DNA from: a virus
UHGV virus genome: UHGV-0177896
Direction: 5' to 3' (one strand)
Length of the DNA: 41,409 nt
This document shows positions 50-36,687 of the stretch, piece by piece (the stretch's first letter is position 1; each line of letters opens with the position of its first letter). Position numbers and translations under genes: made by a program. The notes beneath the pieces are model-generated. The model searched no databases and was not told the DNA's origin. It worked only from the letters and a program-made list of their open reading frames with translations.

Positions 50-706
50 TTATTGCAATTGCACAAGAGTCAGTTCTCCCCCAAAGACAGCACCGGTATC
101 AATATAATGCAGGTTGCCAATATCCACGCGATGGCGCAAAGGTGTATGACCAAACCAGAAATGATCAGCACCTGCAATTCCCTGCCCTTTTTGGCGTTCA
201 CCTAATCGCGAGCGGCTCCACAAGACCTGATGCAAATCGACGTCCTTTTGCCATTCATAAACATCATCTGGATAATCGGCATGAGCAATAACATGTTTGC
301 CGGTGCGGCTGTGTACTTCAAGAATAAAGGGCAAATGCTGACATTTTTCCAGCGCCGTTTTCGCTTGTTTCTGTTGATTATCTGCCAGCGCAATAAACCA
401 GTCGCCGCCATTCATCAACCATAAAGACATCTGCCGGGATGCCAGCGCATCCATCGCCATCTGTTCATGATTGCCTCTTACCGCACGAACCCAATGTTGT
501 TCCAGTAACTGCAGGCAACGTAAACTTTGCGGCCCACGATCGATAACGTCTCCCACTGAGATAAGTAAATCTCGCCACGGATCAAAACGACAATGCCATA
601 ATTTGCGGCGCAATTGCTCAAGACAACCGTGTATATCGCCTGAAAGCCAGATATGTCGCCATTGATGACCCGCAATTCTCTGATAAACGGGCGCAGGCTG
701 TTTCAT
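50..706 (-). CDS. pphA: Serine/threonine protein phosphatase, PPP/lambda-phosphatase family (218 aa)
   Basis: Translation has the metallophosphatase motifs GDIHG, GDVIDRG and GNHE. ATG at 706 with a GGGAGG SD upstream; the ORF-track start at 709 is TTG. Symbol from memory of E. coli PphA/PrpA. Confidence 0.8.
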   Translation of the reverse strand: MKQPAPVYQRIAGHQWRHIWLSGDIHGCLEQLRRKLWHCRFDPWRDLLISVGDVIDRGPQSLRCLQLLEQHWVRAVRGNHEQMAMDALASRQMSLWLMNGGDWFIALADNQQKQAKTALEKCQHLPFILEVHSRTGKHVIAHADYPDDVYEWQKDVDLHQVLWSRSRLGERQKGQGIAGADHFWFGHTPLRHRVDIGNLHYIDTGAVFGGELTLVQLQ

Positions 707-1170
707 CAATATTTTCCTCCCGCGCTAAAGATCACATAATCTTAACAAGAATGTTAAAAAACGCTGGACTCAAACAGTAGAGTGTGTGTTATGGTTGACT
801 ATAAAGTCAGCGAAGGGAATGCTTCTGGCTTTTAACAGATAAAAAGAGACCGAACACGATTCCTGTTTTCGTCAACAAACAAGAAACCCTTTTTAAATTA
901 ATTTGTTAAGCAAAATTACGCTCATCTTTTAATCCCAAACACGTACCATTGCATATTAATGCATTCAATTAGTTACCATTTTTTTCGAGTTTTTTAGAGA
1001 AAATTTCGGGACTATTTCAGACCAATCCAGGCAGAAATAAGCAATCCCTATATTGAATGATTCCGCAACAATTATGTAAAATCACCTCCGGCTGATTTTC
1101 ATTCAAACTCGCGCTATCGAACGTCCATCAGCCAGCCGTGGCACGTTCTTGCATACGACGTGCTACGGTT

Positions 1171-1725
1171 TCATTTATCTCCGACCGGAAACTTCTTATA
1201 CAAAGTCGATACGCCAACATCATAAATGATCGCCACCTTCTGGCGAGGAACTCCTGATGCAATTAGTCGCCCGGCCTGCGCCCATTGTTCTGGTGTAAGT
1301 TTGGGACGACGTCCACCAATTCGTCCCTGTGCGCGAGCAGCTTCCAGTCCAGCTTTTGTTCGTTCAACAATCAGTTCTCGTTCCATTTCAGCCAGGGCCC
1401 CCATCACATGAAAGAAAAAACGCCCCATCGGTGTGCTGGTATCAATAGCATCCGTCAGGCTGCGAAAATTAACGCCACGTTCGCGCAACTCCTCAACCAG
1501 AATGACCAGATGCCGCATACTACGCCCCAGCCGATCCAGCTTCCAGACAACCAGAGTGTCACCTGCCGATAATGTCCTGAGCAGTTTTTTCAGTCCCGGC
1601 CTTTCGGACTTTGTACCGCTTATCTTGTCTTCAAAAATCAGCTCGCATCCTGCACAGTTCAACGCATTACGTTGTAGATCGGTATTCTGGTCATTTGTTG
1701 ATACGCGTACATAGCCAATAAGCAT
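1171..1725 (-). CDS. pin: Serine-recombinase DNA invertase (Pin/Hin/Gin family, 184 aa)
   Basis: N-terminus MLIGYVRVSTNDQ is the resolvase/invertase catalytic-serine motif, with a C-terminal HTH. ATG at 1725 (internal Met of ORF 1171..1761). Sits next to an invertible tail-fibre segment. Confidence 0.9.
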   Translation of the reverse strand: MLIGYVRVSTNDQNTDLQRNALNCAGCELIFEDKISGTKSERPGLKKLLRTLSAGDTLVVWKLDRLGRSMRHLVILVEELRERGVNFRSLTDAIDTSTPMGRFFFHVMGALAEMERELIVERTKAGLEAARAQGRIGGRRPKLTPEQWAQAGRLIASGVPRQKVAIIYDVGVSTLYKKFPVGDK

Positions 1726-1751
1726 GGTAGATCTCCCTGACAAAAGCAGGA

Positions 1752-2126
1752 ATGATGCCATTTGCTCGTTATTTCTGCATTTTCATAAACGTTGGTTTGG
1801 GAGAAGCGGCAAAACGGAATGTGGGAACAGGGGAAAATCAGATACCTGATATGTCATCATATGCATCAGGTTCAGGCTGGCGAAAAATGCCAGATGGTTC
1901 AATTGAACAGTGGGGACGAATTAGTTTTCCTGGTGAACACGGGCCTGTATCCGCCAATGTTTCATTCCCGATTCCATTTACACAGACACCGGGCATTGTA
2001 ATTGTGTGCGATGGTGGTTTCGGGGGCGGGAATATGTGGGGGGCGACCAACTGGAGCACTACCGGCTTCATAGCTCACTGCAATTATGGTCTTGAAGGTG
2101 GTGCGTTTTTCGCTAAGGGCTGGTAA
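1752..2126 (+). CDS. Alternative tail-fibre C-terminal segment (Sv'-like), silent in this orientation
   Basis: ORF begins at the crossover site, which encodes NVGLGE. It lacks its own start context and would fuse to the constant part of the tail-fibre gene after inversion. Followed directly by a tfa-like gene. Confidence 0.6.
1780..1805. repeat. Invertase crossover site, left (hix/gix-like 26 bp)
   Basis: Plus strand reads TTTTCATAAACG TT GGTTTGGGAGAA. Its reverse complement shares the half-site TTCTCCCAAACC and central AA with the site at 3596..3621, so the two are in inverted orientation. Confidence 0.8.
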
Positions 2127-2569
2127 TGATGAAATATCTGTACGTAAACAACCTGGCATATCCTTACGAACTTCAGTCTCTTTATGTTGAAAAAGGTGAA
2201 TGGCCTGAAGAAAAAGGTGTTGATATAGACGAAGTAATTTTCAGGGAATATTTCTATGACACACCACCAGAAGGAAAATACAGATGTGTTGGAGAAGATG
2301 GACTGCCTGCATGGGCAGATATTCCTCCACCAACACGTGAAGAACAAATTGCATCAGCCGAAACTAAAAAGCAGCAATTGATTAATCAGGCCAACGATTA
2401 TATGAACAGTAGACAATGGGTTGGTAAAGCGGCTATTGGTCGTCTGAAAGGTGAGGAACTGGCGCAATATAATTTGTGGCTGGATTATCTGGACGCACTG
2501 GAGCTGGTCGATACTTCCAGTGCACCAGATATTGAATGGCCTACTCCTCCGGCAGTTCAGGCCAGATGA
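2126..2569 (+). CDS. Tail-fibre assembly protein, alternative copy (Tfa/U'-like)
   Basis: 147-aa ORF with a C-terminus typical of tail-fibre assembly chaperones (ELAQYNLWLDYLDALELVDTSSAPDIEWPTPP). Lies inside the invertible segment, convergent with the other tfa. Confidence 0.75.
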   Translation: MMKYLYVNNLAYPYELQSLYVEKGEWPEEKGVDIDEVIFREYFYDTPPEGKYRCVGEDGLPAWADIPPPTREEQIASAETKKQQLINQANDYMNSRQWVGKAAIGRLKGEELAQYNLWLDYLDALELVDTSSAPDIEWPTPPAVQAR

Positions 2570-3143
2570 CATCCGGCGCGGTGCTGGTATCTGTTGCCGT
2601 CACCGCGTCAATGTAATCCAGCACGGCGTTAAGTCGGGTTGTTTCTGCCTGCGTCAACTTCCGTCCGGCCTGTAATTTCAGCTGAATCAGACTAATGGAA
2701 GCCATTGCTGCATTAATCAGTGACTGGCGCTGTGCTTCTGCCGCGTCTAGTGCGGCGCTATGCTGTACCTCGGTATCCGTCATCCATTTCTCACCATCCC
2801 ATTTATCGTATGGCGTTAATGGGGCGATAGTGGTTGTATTTTCAGGGTAATCACCCGGAACTGTGATTTCTTTGGTATCTCCCGTTTCGGTACTATAGAC
2901 AACTTCACCGCGATGGTCTGGCACATATTCCCATGAATTTAAATCTACAGAGCGACAGATTGCATAACCAGCTTTATGTGTACCTGGTGCATCCAGACAG
3001 GAACATGCCGGGATGCCGACGCCGACAGAAAGATATTCAGTTGATGCAGAAATATATTCCCGCGTCTCACCGTCATAGTTATAAACGGTGATATTTCCTG
3101 CTTGAGTGGCAATAAATTCGTTATTTAATACAGCGTCATTCAT
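2541..3143 (-). CDS. Tail-fibre assembly protein (Tfa/U-like)
   Basis: 200-aa ORF directly downstream of the tail-fibre gene. C-terminus RLNAVLDYIDAVTATDTSTAPDVIWPELP parallels the alternative copy. Confidence 0.75.
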   Translation of the reverse strand: MNDAVLNNEFIATQAGNITVYNYDGETREYISASTEYLSVGVGIPACSCLDAPGTHKAGYAICRSVDLNSWEYVPDHRGEVVYSTETGDTKEITVPGDYPENTTTIAPLTPYDKWDGEKWMTDTEVQHSAALDAAEAQRQSLINAAMASISLIQLKLQAGRKLTQAETTRLNAVLDYIDAVTATDTSTAPDVIWPELPEE

Positions 3144-3964
3144 TATGCAGCTCTCACGATATAATTAAATGCAATATTACGGGGACGCGCGGATACGTAA
3201 GCCCACCAATCATATCTTTGTGCACCTTTGCTGGATGCATCAAATATCCACTTTTTGCCATTTATGGTGTTCCACTGATTGGAGGTAAGACTGTCACCGA
3301 ATCCATAGTTTGCAGAACCCAGCGAACTGATATCCCCTGTATCATTGTCATCAAAGCCGGAAACGATAGTCCCCTCCTGAAATGACAGTATCGTACGCCC
3401 TGAGTCAACCCCGCGCCCGTCATCCCAGCCACGGATAAACTCCCCGCGCAAATCAGGCAGTCTGAGCGACGGATAGGCAAGCGCCAGTTGGGGGTATTGT
3501 GAGGCCGTGAAAGCAGCTCCATTACACTTGAGCCATCCCGCTGGCGGGACGGCAAGAGGCCACGGCACCGGAACGCCAACAGGCAAAGCAGAGCCTTCTC
3601 CCAAACCAAGGTTTTCGAGAGCCGTTTTCACCGTGCCATCCGATTTGATATCACCAAACGGATTCTTGCGGCTCAGGTATTCAACAGCAAACCCCGATCC
3701 CAGCAATTCAACAAAACCGGGCAGATCACCATTATCAAGCACATCCCGTTGCGTTTTATCACTTACAAACTGGGCCAGAGCTGCAGCAATAAAGCTGGCC
3801 TGCCGAATAACCTTATTGACTTGCGCACTGGAGGCTTTCCCTGCTGTAAATCCAGATAAAAGCGCGGGCAACGCTTCCCATTCCTCCTGCGATATAACAT
3901 TGGCTTTTCGATCCGTTGCAAACGCTTTAAAGTCATTTTTCGCCATCAGAGTAATACTCCCCAT
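3143..3964 (-). CDS. Tail-fibre protein (constant N-terminal part plus variable C-terminal part)
   Basis: 273-aa ORF. The crossover site at 3596..3621 lies in-frame and encodes ENLGLGE about 119 codons in. An alternative ATG at 3946 overlaps the upstream stop as ATGA. Confidence 0.75.
3596..3621. repeat. Invertase crossover site, right (hix/gix-like 26 bp)
   Basis: Reads TTCTCCCAAACC AA GGTTTTCGAGAG, containing the AAACCAAGGTTT core typical of Hin/Gin/Pin sites. Inverted partner at 1780..1805. Confidence 0.8.
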
Positions 3965-4626
3965 GCTCCTACATCAAAACCACTGATGAATTCGTTATCC
4001 ATATCAAAACCAAAAAATTTTGAGCCTTCCGATGGGGTTTCCACCGAAGGTGTTTCAATGCCACCCGCCCATACCCCGGCGGCTTTTACTGTGAGATACC
4101 CCTGTTTAATTGCCGCAATTAACTCACGCGATACATCTGAAATATCAGTATCAGGAAAGACCCAGACCGATATCGTCATGTCCTGGTTATCGACTATCTG
4201 CATTCGCAGTCCGGATCCTGCTGTTGCCGCGTCAAGAATTGCCGGAAGCGAATCATTCCGTCCGTCCCAGTTATTAATCGCAATCTTCGCTTTAAGGATG
4301 ACACGATAAGTTTCATCGCTGAGGTACATGTATCCGGAATCAGGATCGTATGGCCCCTGCCATACACCCTGATCATATCCAAGCCCGTCGGTATCCCAGC
4401 TGAAATAAACACCTGAAATAGGCTGGCTGACAACACGGCTACGTCCGATCCACAATCCCAGAATGTCAAGTTGCACACCAACCGCAGAGTCAATATCAAA
4501 TGCAGTAATCAGCCCTCTGGTGGCAGCCGCAACATCAATAAGCGGCCGGGTCATCAGATCAACATGTGCAAGAAATTTAGGTTTGGTGGCGTGGTAGTTC
4601 GTGATTAGTTCGGTGTATTTGCTCAT
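3946..4626 (-). CDS. Baseplate/tail protein (Mu gp48-like, YmfQ-like)
   Basis: 226-aa ORF immediately upstream of the tail fibre and downstream of the J-like baseplate gene. Family assignment from position and general sequence character. Confidence 0.6.
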
Positions 4627-5822
4627 GACTCCACCGTTATAACGATATTTTCCGGGGTACAGGACGCAGATTCGTTGTATCTGATATCAATGTTTGATGA
4701 CGACAAAGCCCCCGGGGATTTCCCAATCGTCAGTTCCTGAATATCGTAATAGCGTGCATTCCCGCCACTCACCACGCCAAGATTCGCCGGTGAGTAAATG
4801 CGACTTAAAAGGACCGAATCACCAATCATCAGACTATTGATATAGTCGGAAATAGCCTGCTGGATCTGCTGCCCTATCTGTGAGGTATAACCCGTAAAAA
4901 CTTTTAATTTAATCCGGGCATAAACAGGCACATCACTGGAACGCGAAAATTTGATTACATGGGGATTGCCGTATTTATCCGGAACCGTAACGGATGTTGT
5001 ACCGTGAGTGGCTGTCCCCTGGCCTTTATTCCCTCTGATAGCCTGAGCAATATCCGTCACATCACCGCCATCCACAATTACAGCAACAGAGTGTGGCGGT
5101 AACCCGTTACCGTCCTCCGAACCATTATCGTTTTCATAGAGTTTGTGGCGGGTTACACCGGTAACATTAGAAACAGCACCATTCAGTGCTTCAAATGGGG
5201 TTATTGATGGCAACGCAACACTTTGCGACTGTCGGATACGTAACTCCGCATCAGTTTCTGCCGGAGTGCCCACAGTAGCCGCAGCAGGATTGGTTACCGA
5301 AACCCAGCCACGGGTTGGCGTATTAATTTCAGTGATAGTTCCAGCCAGCGCCGCCACTGCACCACTGACGGAACATGTTGCGGTCACCATCACTGTACCA
5401 TCCACGCCGACCACCACTGAAGCAGGCAAACGCCATATCACATTATTACTGTCTTTCACGCTGCCATTAATGATGGTTGTTCCGGCAGTTCCTGTAAGAA
5501 GCAAATCAACCGTAGAGTTCGTCGCGCCTTTACGTGAAATACCATTTATTTTCACGTTACTGGTCAGTGCAGCCCCATAGCTGGTTGCTGGTGAAAAACA
5601 GTTGTAGACAGTTATCGCCATATTATTGGCATCATGAATCGCCAGCGCCATCAGAGCCACCATCTGGCCGTCTTTGCTGTCCGGTTCGAGGTAGGCATCA
5701 CTGCCATAAATCTGCTGAAAATAGCTAATCAGGGTGCTGAGTATCGTCTGATAATCAGGCGCACTGATCCCCTCCGCGGTTACCTTTGCAGATAAACCGA
5801 GAGAATCAAGGTTCAGAGCCAT
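4623..5822 (-). CDS. Baseplate J-like protein (Mu gp47-like)
   Basis: 399-aa ORF in the baseplate operon; size and order match baseplate J/gp47. Confidence 0.65.
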   Translation of the reverse strand: MALNLDSLGLSAKVTAEGISAPDYQTILSTLISYFQQIYGSDAYLEPDSKDGQMVALMALAIHDANNMAITVYNCFSPATSYGAALTSNVKINGISRKGATNSTVDLLLTGTAGTTIINGSVKDSNNVIWRLPASVVVGVDGTVMVTATCSVSGAVAALAGTITEINTPTRGWVSVTNPAAATVGTPAETDAELRIRQSQSVALPSITPFEALNGAVSNVTGVTRHKLYENDNGSEDGNGLPPHSVAVIVDGGDVTDIAQAIRGNKGQGTATHGTTSVTVPDKYGNPHVIKFSRSSDVPVYARIKLKVFTGYTSQIGQQIQQAISDYINSLMIGDSVLLSRIYSPANLGVVSGGNARYYDIQELTIGKSPGALSSSNIDIRYNESASCTPENIVITVES

Positions 5823-6988: not shown

Positions 6989-7162
6989 CTAACTATCTTT
7001 CTTGGGAAAAGTTGAAGGCTTGTCGTGATAGCTTTCCGTCATAATTTCGATATCCCCGAAAGGTACTCTAGCAATAATCTCTTGCTCATAGTTATCTAGG
7101 AAAGAGACCTCAGGCTCACTTGGTTTAGGTTGTGGTTCATTTTGGTCTTCTGGACAGGACAT
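6989..7162 (-). CDS. Small acidic, proline-rich hypothetical protein (57 aa)
   Basis: Hand-translated: MSCPEDQNEPQPKPSEPEVSFLDNYEQEIIARVPFGDIEIMTESYHDKPSTFPKKDS. ATG at 7162 lies 2 nt after the upstream stop (TGAATATG). Below the 60-aa ORF-track cutoff. Confidence 0.3.
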   Translation of the reverse strand: MSCPEDQNEPQPKPSEPEVSFLDNYEQEIIARVPFGDIEIMTESYHDKPSTFPKKDS

Positions 7163-7164
7163 AT

Positions 7165-7695
7165 TCAAACCTTACTTATTAACATGCACGTTACAGAAAT
7201 AATAAAAAATACAAATGACATAACCATCCATCGAAACAACTCATTTACAAACGCTGATTTTTCTTTATGGATTTTCTCGATTCTATCAATAGCCCTACCA
7301 TACATTATCAAATGAAATCTGACTGTGTCATCTCTACTACCCCTCAGAAGAAATTCATGTTGTTCAGGTGTTCGATGCACAGGCATTTTGGGAATATTTC
7401 TAAGTTCCCAACATTTCCATAAATAATAAAAACAAAAAACCAAACATACAAAACATGAACATAGACACAATAGAGACAATCTTGCGGATAGACTAGTCTT
7501 TAACTGTTGTCCCAGCTCAAAGGACCCAAAAACGGCTAATAATGCAGAAATCTCAACACCAAGCACAGCAAGAAGAAAATTAGCTTTGTCCTCTAACCGC
7601 CTGTATGTTGTCTTAACTTCTTCATACCTGTCTCTCGAGTACGACAAAATCGTATCTACTTCAAGGCCAACAGCCTCATTCCTTTGATTGCACAT
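7165..7695 (-). CDS. Hypothetical integral membrane protein, low-GC cargo gene
   Basis: 176 aa with about three hydrophobic helices, one Cys-rich (LSLLCLCSCFVCLVFCFYYLW). Local DNA is markedly AT-rich compared with the flanking tail genes. No recognisable domain. Confidence 0.55.
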   Translation of the reverse strand: MCNQRNEAVGLEVDTILSYSRDRYEEVKTTYRRLEDKANFLLAVLGVEISALLAVFGSFELGQQLKTSLSARLSLLCLCSCFVCLVFCFYYLWKCWELRNIPKMPVHRTPEQHEFLLRGSRDDTVRFHLIMYGRAIDRIEKIHKEKSAFVNELFRWMVMSFVFFIISVTCMLISKV

Positions 7696-28241: not shown

Positions 28242-28312
28242 CGTAGTTCTCCGCTGGCGCAGTAGAATTGGTGTTCAGCCCGTTATGTAGTATACCAGAA
28301 TTAATGCCAATA

Positions 28313-28800: not shown

Positions 28801-28956
28801 TTACTCCTCAGGTTCGTAAGCTGTGAAGACAGCGACCTCCGTCTGGCCGGTTCGGATTCGTACCTCGCAGAGGTCCTTCCTCGTTACCAGTGCCGTCACT
28901 ATGACGGTTAAACAGATGACAATCAGGGCGACTAACATCGCCTTTTGCTGCTTCAT
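28801..28956 (-). CDS. hok: Hok/Gef-family type I toxin (51 aa)
   Basis: MKQQKAMLVALIVICLTVIVTALVTRKDLCEVRIRTGQTEVAVFTAYEPEE: a single TM helix plus the conserved RKDLCEV...IRTGQTEVAVF core. AAGGAGAAG SD; an in-frame upstream ATG at 29013 may correspond to mok. Confidence 0.85.
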   Translation of the reverse strand: MKQQKAMLVALIVICLTVIVTALVTRKDLCEVRIRTGQTEVAVFTAYEPEE

Positions 28957-36527: not shown

Positions 36528-36687
36528 GTGAATCGGCGCTTTTTTTAGCATCACGTTCATTGAGTAATGACAAAAACTCATTCTCAGCATTCTCGATTTC
36601 CGAGAAAAATTCTTGATGAGTTGTTTCTCGCTGCGATCTGATGCTGAAAGCTAAAGCAAGTAGCCAGGCTTTGTCTTTATTATCCAT
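36493..36687 (-). CDS. Hypothetical small protein (64 aa), opposite strand within the early-left region
   Basis: ATG at 36687 with a weak SD. Convergent with, and overlapping, the 3' end of the 36309..36527 ORF. Uncertain. Confidence 0.3.
   Translation of the reverse strand: MDNKDKAWLLALAFSIRSQRETTHQEFFSEIENAENEFLSLLNERDAKKSADSLKAWAKLGSSK

Follow-up and report, generated by a model that had tools for sequence, protein, structure and literature searches.

A Pin-type invertible tail-fibre segment in an Escherichia coli prophage and its opposite orientation in near-identical genomes

Genes and features of the invertible region

The analysed window (the whole stretch of 41,409 nucleotides) appears to hold a complete prophage with head, tail, lysis, and replication genes. 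Near one of its ends lie a DNA invertase gene, two sets of tail-fibre and chaperone genes, and two short inverted sites. The features of this region are as follows (coordinates refer to the window).

1171..1725, minus strand: pin, encoding a DNA invertase of 184 aa, located beyond the invertible segment and transcribed away from it
1636..1707, minus strand: putative enhancer of recombination (Fis-binding 'sis' element) within pin, at coding nucleotides 19-90
1752-2126, plus strand: ORF of the gp53-like fibre C-terminus, with its own ATG at 1752/1755
1780..1805, minus strand: pin-proximal 26-bp crossover site, central dinucleotide at 1792-1793
1794..3607, no strand: invertible segment of about 1.8 kb, taken between the central dinucleotides
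1806..2126, plus strand: alternative fibre C-terminus (106 aa; Pfam Gp53-like_C, E = 1.3e-07), not joined to the fibre gene in the window orientation
2126..2569, plus strand: tail-fibre assembly chaperone of the gp53-like tip (147 aa; Pfam Caudo_TAP, E = 3.2e-33)
2541..3143, minus strand: tail-fibre assembly chaperone of the Collar-domain tip (200 aa; Pfam Caudo_TAP, E = 1.4e-30)
3143..3595, minus strand: variable fibre C-terminus in the expressed position (150 aa; Pfam Collar, E = 8.8e-15)
3143-3946/3964, minus strand: tail-fibre ORF with Collar domain (from the ORF list and Pfam)
3596..3621, plus strand: fibre-internal 26-bp crossover site, central dinucleotide at 3608-3609
3622..3946, minus strand: constant N-terminal part of the tail-fibre gene (ATG at 3946), coding for 117 aa when the site is included

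The product of pin carries the Pfam domains Resolvase (E = 8.8e-52) and HTH_7 (E = 3.7e-14). It was 95.7% identical to PinE of e14 and 77.2% identical to Gin of phage Mu, and an identical protein is named pinE in RefSeq (WP_000904983.1). Comparison with the PDB returned the Gin structure 3uj3 (E = 1.3e-93) and gamma-delta resolvase (E = 4e-31), with Ser9 aligned to the S9A substitution of the crystallised Gin mutant (3uj3). Size and architecture correspond to those of the Gin/Cin/Hin/Pin invertases (i.e. about 185-195 aa, an N-terminal catalytic domain, a serine at about position 9-10, and a C-terminal helix-turn-helix). Judged by its sequence, pin is intact, and the adjacent serine invertase named in a preliminary description of this DNA was thus confirmed.

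In the P1 record, the 'enhancer of Cin-mediated C-segment inversion' is annotated at nucleotides 19-90 of cin. The same nucleotides of pin aligned to it without gaps and were identical at 69 of 72 positions to e14 pinE, at 55 of 72 to cin, and at 54 of 72 to gin. This stretch, which ends 72 bp short of the site at 1780-1805, would be expected to function as a Fis-dependent enhancer. A loose scan of the pin 5′ region for the Fis consensus turned up several candidate sites, among which no clear pair stood out. Scanning positions 700-4700 for promoters and terminators gave 7 promoter-like sites versus 6.1 expected.

Upstream of the fibre gene, the tail operon includes genes for a DUF2612 protein and baseplate J. 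The fibre starts at the ATG at 3946 and not at 3964, according to the RefSeq annotation of a near-identical prophage. Each alternative fibre C-terminus is directly followed by its own chaperone gene, and the two cassettes are convergent. ORFs and Pfam domains agree with the proposal that the sites bracket about 1.8 kb holding two convergent sets of fibre C-terminus plus chaperone. The reading frames across the sites were also as claimed previously: the minus strand of the fibre-internal site is read in the fibre gene as LENLGLGE (ENLGLGE in the earlier claim), and the pin-proximal ORF runs through its site as ...INVGLGEAA (NVGLGE). Both states of the segment give an in-frame fibre, of 267 aa in the window and of 223 aa after an in-silico flip.

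Crossover sites and orientation of the segment

The fibre-internal site reads TTCTCCCAAACCAAGGTTTTCGAGAG, i.e. TTCTCCCAAACC-AA-GGTTTTCGAGAG, and the reverse complement of the pin-proximal site reads TTCTCCCAAACCAACGTTTATGAAAA, i.e. TTCTCCCAAACC-AA-CGTTTATGAAAA. The two sites (1780-1805 and 3596-3621) are in opposite orientation. Their four half-sites comprise TTCTCCCAAACC (twice), CTCTCGAAAACC, and TTTTCATAAACG, and the AA core is common to both sites. Coordinates and sequences of the two inverted sites with a central AA had been given before and proved correct; the sites coincide with the inverted repeat ranked first in this region (arms at 1787-1806 and 3595-3614, 20 nt, 95% complementary, spacing 1788 nt). 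The 14-mer TTCTCCCAAACCAA, shared by both sites, occurs in exactly two copies in the window, on opposite strands, and in 0 of 100 dinucleotide-preserving shuffles. Moreover, both sites are base for base those of the Pin system of E. coli K-12 e14, as taken from the K-12 genome record (pin-proximal site, L006 4739-4764; fibre-internal site, L006 2912-2937). The crossover sites are thus real and non-random.

A half-site scan of the whole window detected no third good crossover site, the runner-up (36581-36606) scoring 16/20. A third site would permit multiple inversions, as in the Min system of p15B and in an EPEC P2-like prophage. Among species-representative genomes, the exact 26-bp site was found at eight loci only (seven in Escherichia or Shigella and one on a contig labelled Bacillota), which is too few to judge taxonomic spread.

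A megablast search with the region 1100-4100 in its native orientation against 5,426 complete E. coli genomes returned no full-length match (best match: 79% coverage, 92% identity), which at first hinted at a source outside E. coli. The same region flipped in silico matched E. coli AVS0790 and AVS0196 with 100% identity over 100% of its length; a native full-length match was missing because the near-identical genomes carry the segment flipped. Compared with the prophage that adjoins pphA in E. coli AVS0196, the entire window differs only by one SNP at position 28269 and by the orientation of the segment. Flipping any interval from 1792..3609 to 1807..3594 yields the AVS0196 sequence, apart from this SNP. 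With no other difference between the two assemblies, the exchange is confined to the 16-bp identical core, which includes the central dinucleotide (breakpoints within 1792-1807 and 3594-3609). The single mismatched repeat position (1791/3610), directly outside the central dinucleotide, stayed put.

The segment flipped very recently in an otherwise identical lineage, as seen in assemblies of different isolates rather than in reads from one culture. The preliminary description had proposed that inversion swaps the fibre end, and had named the finding of a single orientation as evidence against the switch. The opposite orientation is present in the assemblies of AVS0196 and AVS0790, and the 223-aa product of the in-silico flip is the gp53-like domain protein annotated as a CDS in AVS0196. 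The Collar-tip state with the exact cassette of the window was found in this window only.

More distant relatives displayed a comparable picture. In SM107 and SJ7, the flanks are collinear and the interior is inverted, with the alignment switching within the same repeats. Among other E. coli genomes, 59 had the Collar-type junction and 9 the gp53-type junction (coverage of at least 80%). In metagenomes, the same 55-nt site plus constant stretch was joined to 36 Collar-like, 16 gp53-like, and 16 other cassettes.

Two rival readings were considered. One attributes the orientation difference to RecA-dependent recombination between the short repeats, or to a mere choice made during assembly. The breakpoints are resolvable only to the 16-bp identical core, which by itself distinguishes no mechanism. 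However, 16-20 bp of homology is shorter than the length required for efficient RecA recombination in E. coli, and the repeats are the exact 26-bp sites of a characterised invertase system, located beside an intact invertase. As to assembly, the flipped state recurs in two independent complete assemblies, repeats of 20 bp are not long enough to mislead an assembler, and an assembler that picked between two real subpopulations would itself provide evidence of flipping. Given the exact invertase sites and the two agreeing assemblies, we rejected this explanation as highly improbable. The other holds that the element has become a locked relic, unable to flip any more. Locked relatives do exist, e.g. 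E. coli SJ7 with its frameshifted pinE, but the opposite orientation occurs in a genome only one SNP away over 41 kb, and pin of the window is intact. For these two reasons, a relic was likewise rejected and appears scarcely credible.

Proposed switch and its possible roles

The locus is best explained as a working inversion switch of the Pin type (Gin/Cin/Hin/Pin family) that closes the tail operon in a full-length E. coli prophage adjoining pphA; we assign this reading a probability of about 0.9. By analogy with the family, Pin dimers would bind both 26-bp sites, and the Fis-bound enhancer in the 5′ end of pin (1636-1707) would join the sites on supercoiled DNA. Ser9 would then cut both sites at the central AA/TT dinucleotide, and half of the tetramer would turn by 180 degrees before the ends are rejoined. 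In the state of the window, the predicted fibre combines the 117-aa constant N-terminus with the 150-aa Collar-domain tip and is served by the 200-aa chaperone. In the state of AVS0196 and AVS0790, the same 117-aa N-terminus would carry the 106-aa gp53-like tip, accompanied by the 147-aa chaperone. Particles from the two states would probably adsorb to different receptors, so that host range is hedged. Collar and gp53-like C, the domain families of the two tips, are unrelated, which fits a use of different receptors. Two host-range states would also be expected, on sound grounds, from the homologous systems of Mu, P1, and e14. For e14, inversion of the segment has been demonstrated by PCR or qPCR (PMC4272514, PMC12529663).

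The adjacent pin need not be the main actor. Invertases of other prophages (PinQ/PinR-like) might act on the segment in trans: for e14, both PinQ and PinR are reported to invert the segment, PinQ driving it further towards the inverted state than PinE does (PMC12529663). The sites of the window are those of e14. In addition, AVS0196 and AVS0790 each contain four places similar to the 3-kb query region, pointing to related modules elsewhere in these genomes. Nevertheless, we regard a leading role of such enzymes as unlikely. The local gene is an intact pin whose product shares 95.7% identity with PinE, and it occupies the canonical position along with its enhancer-homologous stretch; PinE alone produced about 49% inversion (PMC12529663). 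Invertases acting in trans would in any case alter only the acting enzyme and not the nature of the element.

Doubt also concerns the part of the segment that is unjoined to the fibre gene in the window. The preliminary description held it to be a silent alternative cassette of a Pin-type segment. The Pin-type segment and the alternative cassette were both recovered, but 'silent' may be too strong a label, as the pin-proximal ORF has its own ATG like e14 stfE. A function has been reported for the corresponding e14 product in a 2025 paper (PMC12529663). The switch could accordingly serve the lysogen, with the product of the pin-proximal ORF (from 1752/1755) or the fibre being made in the lysogen and masking surface receptors, so that flipping would toggle resistance to other phages. 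Three observations are in line with this idea: (i) the chimeric e14 product StfE2 reportedly blocks T2 adsorption (PMC12529663); (ii) the start of the pin-proximal ORF resembles that of e14 stfE; and (iii) the ORF is annotated as a CDS in RefSeq. On the other hand, the classical phage function suffices for a prophage that looks complete. The only Shine-Dalgarno-like motif (AGGA) lies 0 and 3 nt ahead of the ATGs at 1752/1755, a poor spacing. Overlap with the crossover site and with the region upstream of pin would in itself account for the conservation of the leader. Service to the lysogen therefore seems quite unlikely. A combined scheme is similarly doubtful: the pin-proximal cassette with its chaperone might yield, from its own ATG, a free receptor-binding domain that masks a receptor of the lysogen like e14 StfE2, so that host range and phage resistance are both toggled, perhaps by invertases of other prophages at infection.

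As a Pin-type switch, the element adds one more copy to the known systems of the Pin/Gin/Cin/Hin kind. It brings little new biology, as RefSeq already contains this prophage and its annotated pinE and fibre genes. It does offer a clean natural example, a pair of assemblies set apart by a single SNP and a single flip, and a reminder that such orientation differences between assemblies represent phase variation and not strain differences or errors. Protection of lysogens against other phages by such switches is a recent claim. Since the prophage looks complete, it should be convenient for testing host-range switching as well as this claimed protection.

Comparison with known systems

The closest counterpart is the P segment of e14 (pinE, stfP/ycfK, tfaP, tfaE, and stfE), with which the window shares identical 26-bp sites and a 95.7% identical invertase. 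The layout is also the same, i.e. the constant fibre part, a site, two convergent tip-plus-chaperone cassettes, the second site, and the outward-facing pin. Cassette types correspond as well (gp53-like tip with TfaP-like chaperone, Collar tip with TfaE-like chaperone), and the end of the constant fibre part is conserved. Identity to e14 differs among the exchanged genes: the Collar-side chaperone is 87% identical to TfaE and the gp53-side chaperone 52% identical to TfaP, whereas the tips have diverged (Collar tip 52% identical to StfE, gp53-like tip 26%). The constant fibre N-terminus is mostly unrelated between the two elements, and the fibre gene is preceded by a DUF2612 gene in the window but by that of YmfQ in e14. 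The window element is a full-length prophage by pphA whose tail module is of the myovirus type and whose early region is Rac-like; in contrast, e14 is decayed and located at icd.

The G segment of Mu with its invertase Gin (S/U and S′/U′) resembles the window in an invertase of 77% identity and in 26-bp sites of the half-site type TT.TC..AAACC. In both, the invertase is encoded outside the segment by a gene that points outward and has a site immediately upstream, and a constant fibre N-terminus is combined with alternative C-termini and chaperones. Mu differs in its segment of 3 kb, its much larger tips, its phage type, and the central dinucleotide (GA/TC in Mu versus AA/TT in the window). The C segment of P1 with Cin belongs to the same family, and the enhancer stretch of cin is the one matched at 55 of 72 positions above. 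However, cin faces its 4.2-kb segment, and cixL overlaps the cin 3′ end. Finally, Hin of Salmonella represents the same invertase subclass, with 26-bp sites and, about 100 bp from one of them, an enhancer bound by Fis (PMC3798978). Unlike pin, the hin gene is located inside its own segment, and inversion there flips a promoter for flagellin genes rather than swapping the coding end of a fibre.

Architecture of the invertible segment

The anatomy of the element was established from its ORFs, domains and repeats. These bore out the preliminary description of two convergent sets of tail-fibre tip and chaperone, bracketed by two 26-bp sites at the positions claimed, with a serine invertase adjacent.

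Features of the invertible segment and its borders
1171-1725, minus strand: pin invertase, 184 aa, with Resolvase and HTH_7 domains
1752-2126, plus strand: gp53-like fibre C-terminal domain
1780-1805: pin-proximal crossover site, 26 bp (reverse complement TTCTCCCAAACCAACGTTTATGAAAA)
2126-2569, plus strand: Caudo_TAP chaperone
2541-3143, minus strand: Caudo_TAP chaperone
3143-3946, minus strand: fibre with phage tail Collar domain
3596-3621: fibre-internal crossover site, 26 bp (sequence TTCTCCCAAACCAAGGTTTTCGAGAG)

The invertase gene is intact. The chaperone genes converge and share 29 bp at their 3′ ends (2541-2569), and DUF2612 and baseplate J genes lie upstream of the fibre on the minus strand, followed by the remaining tail operon. 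The top-ranked inverted repeat of 1000-4300 in a repeat finder had arms of 20 nt with one mismatch (1787-1806 and 3595-3614), 1788 nt apart. A 14-mer common to both sites had exactly two occurrences in the 41.4-kb window, one on each strand, and was absent from 100 of 100 shuffles. In a scan of all 26-mers of the window, with both arms scored for the half-site pattern TTCTC..AAACC, the two sites reached 19/20 and 18/20; no third site was found window-wide, only one weak unrelated candidate (36581-36606). This is therefore a two-site system, and a multi-site shufflon was rejected. A second inverted repeat inside the segment (2479-2496 and 2605-2622; 18 nt, 83%) is produced by the conserved C-termini of the two chaperone genes and is not a crossover site.

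Both sites are read in frame as previously proposed, the fibre-internal one as LENLGLGE and the other as NVGLGE within the pin-proximal ORF. Inversion of 1794-3607 in silico yielded an uninterrupted fibre ORF ending FAKGW, in line with the proposed swap of the fibre end. From the ATG at 3946, the fibre comprises 267 aa with the Collar tip in the window's state and 223 aa with the gp53-like tip in the flipped state, with a constant part of 117 aa common to both. By analogy with Mu, P1 and related systems, the two states would be expected to confer different host ranges. Compatible with such a phage role, the pin-proximal ORF may itself be expressed and alter the lysogen's sensitivity to other phages: it has an ATG of its own, its leader resembles that of stfE in e14, the defective prophage of E. 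coli K-12, and such an effect was claimed for e14 StfE2 (PMC12529663). However, the Shine-Dalgarno-like sequence, as read from the DNA, is poorly spaced to the ATG, the leader coincides in part with the crossover site and the region upstream of pin, and the prophage looks complete, which speaks against a lysogen role.

The segment flipped recently at these sites

By megablast, native 1100-4100 had no full-length match among 5,426 complete E. coli genomes (best match, 79% coverage at 92% identity). After an in-silico flip, the whole of this interval aligned to E. coli AVS0790 and AVS0196 with 100.0% identity (100% coverage), and window 1-25000 aligned to both, likewise with 100.0% identity, as two blocks that together cover 93%. 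Compared position by position, the whole window had 1,323 mismatches to AVS0196, all within 1807-3594 except one at 28269 (T in the window, G in AVS0196), which was the sole difference remaining after the in-silico flip. Flipping any interval between the limits 1792..3609 and 1807..3594 reproduced the AVS0196 sequence, which places the exchange within the 16 bp that the two repeats share without mismatch, a core that includes the central dinucleotide (1792-1793 and 3608-3609). Immediately beyond this dinucleotide, the only position at which the repeats differ (1791/3610) stayed put, as cleavage at the central 2 bp would predict, with the cut resolvable only to the 16-bp core.

The chromosomal location of the prophage, adjoining pphA and yebW, does not differ between the two genomes. 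Given this and the near-identity, the segment flipped within a lineage with one substitution in 41 kb. Both orientations thus exist in otherwise identical DNA, which excludes a locked relic; the preliminary observation is confirmed and its interpretation supported. The orientation difference is very unlikely to stem from RecA recombination or from an assembly artefact, since the repeat of 16-20 bp coincides with known invertase sites and two complete assemblies are concordant. As in the invertase family, an invertasome would assemble on a Fis-bound enhancer, make a staggered cut at the central AA/TT and undergo subunit rotation. Much of the flipping may be due to invertases encoded by other prophages, as reported for e14 (PMC12529663), and AVS0196 holds four places similar to this region; their action is compatible with that of the local Pin.

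Related copies and the surrounding prophage

In related prophages of E. coli SM107 and SJ7, the flanks were collinear with the window and the interior was inverted, the alignments changing strand within 1787-1806 and 3595-3614. According to its annotation, pinE is frameshifted in SJ7 (3045-3598 of its locus), so locked copies also exist. The SJ7 copy is in the gp53-expressed state and may be locked unless flipped in trans. Queries of 401 nt across the fibre-internal junction reached at least 80% coverage in 59 genomes for the Collar state and in nine for the gp53 state.

Metagenome contigs were scanned for exact matches to a 55-nt stretch (site plus constant region). Of the loci returned, 80 were classified; their variable side was Collar-like in 36, gp53-like in 16 (four at least 99% identical to the window's cassette), other in 16, and too short to classify in 12. 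Six of these 12 were whole contigs ending 1-46 nt past the site, which suggests assembly breaks at a polymorphic junction. The identical stretch is joined to at least three variable-cassette classes, and the site and constant fibre stretch look like a common attachment point at which fibre tips can be exchanged. The 26-bp site was also noted in exact form (155-180) on a 5.8-kb contig of a metagenome-assembled genome labelled as Bacillota; this contig probably belongs to an enterobacterial phage and was mis-binned.

The window (1-41409) is a mosaic prophage inserted beside pphA (50-706), with (i) a myovirus-type tail/head module (baseplate J, DUF2612, DUF3383, DUF2184, DUF1073); (ii) lambda-type lysis genes; (iii) a Rac-like early region (ydaT, ydaV, kil, recE, recT, start of ralR); and (iv) a hokD type I toxin gene (28801-28956), as annotated for the identical prophage of AVS0196. 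Within the tail operon, two ORFs of 176 and 59 aa (6989-7695, minus strand) separate the spike gene from the tail gene that follows; the larger one probably encodes a membrane protein. The GC content of this stretch drops to 0.355, compared with about 0.5 in its surroundings. RefSeq annotates no CDS at the equivalent place in AVS0196, Pfam gave no match, and PADLOC gave weak matches to the Pycsar membrane effector PycTM (E 2.6e-4, 19 bits). The prophage may carry an accessory gene here that annotation has missed.

Comparison with e14, Mu, P1 and Hin

Comparison sequences were taken from the K-12 MG1655 record (e14) and a phage collection (Mu and P1). Both e14 crossover sites are identical to those of the window, whereas Mu sites are of the same half-site type with a different core. 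Pin is 95.7% identical to e14 PinE (eight substitutions) and 77% identical to Mu Gin. Its best solved-structure matches were Gin (E 1.3e-93), with Ser9 aligning to the alanine of the S9A crystal mutant.

The P1 record annotates an enhancer of Cin-mediated inversion at cin nucleotides 19-90. The corresponding stretch of pin (1636-1707) aligns without gaps and is identical at 69/72 positions to e14, 55/72 to cin and 54/72 to gin; outside it, the identity of pin with gin and cin is about 70%. Between this putative enhancer and the pin-proximal site lie 72 bp; in the Hin system, the enhancer is at a similar distance, roughly 100 bp, from a hix site (PMC3798978).

The cassettes are mosaic relatives of those of e14 (identities: TfaE 87%, TfaP 52%, StfE tip 52%, StfP tip 26%), and the last 27 residues of the StfP constant part are common with the window fibre. 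The e14 system, with identical sites, flips in culture according to PCR (PMC4272514) and qPCR (PMC12529663). The element is thus known biology, another instance of the Pin system that RefSeq already annotates as such; all that it adds is a clean natural example of a flip whose position could be narrowed to the site core.
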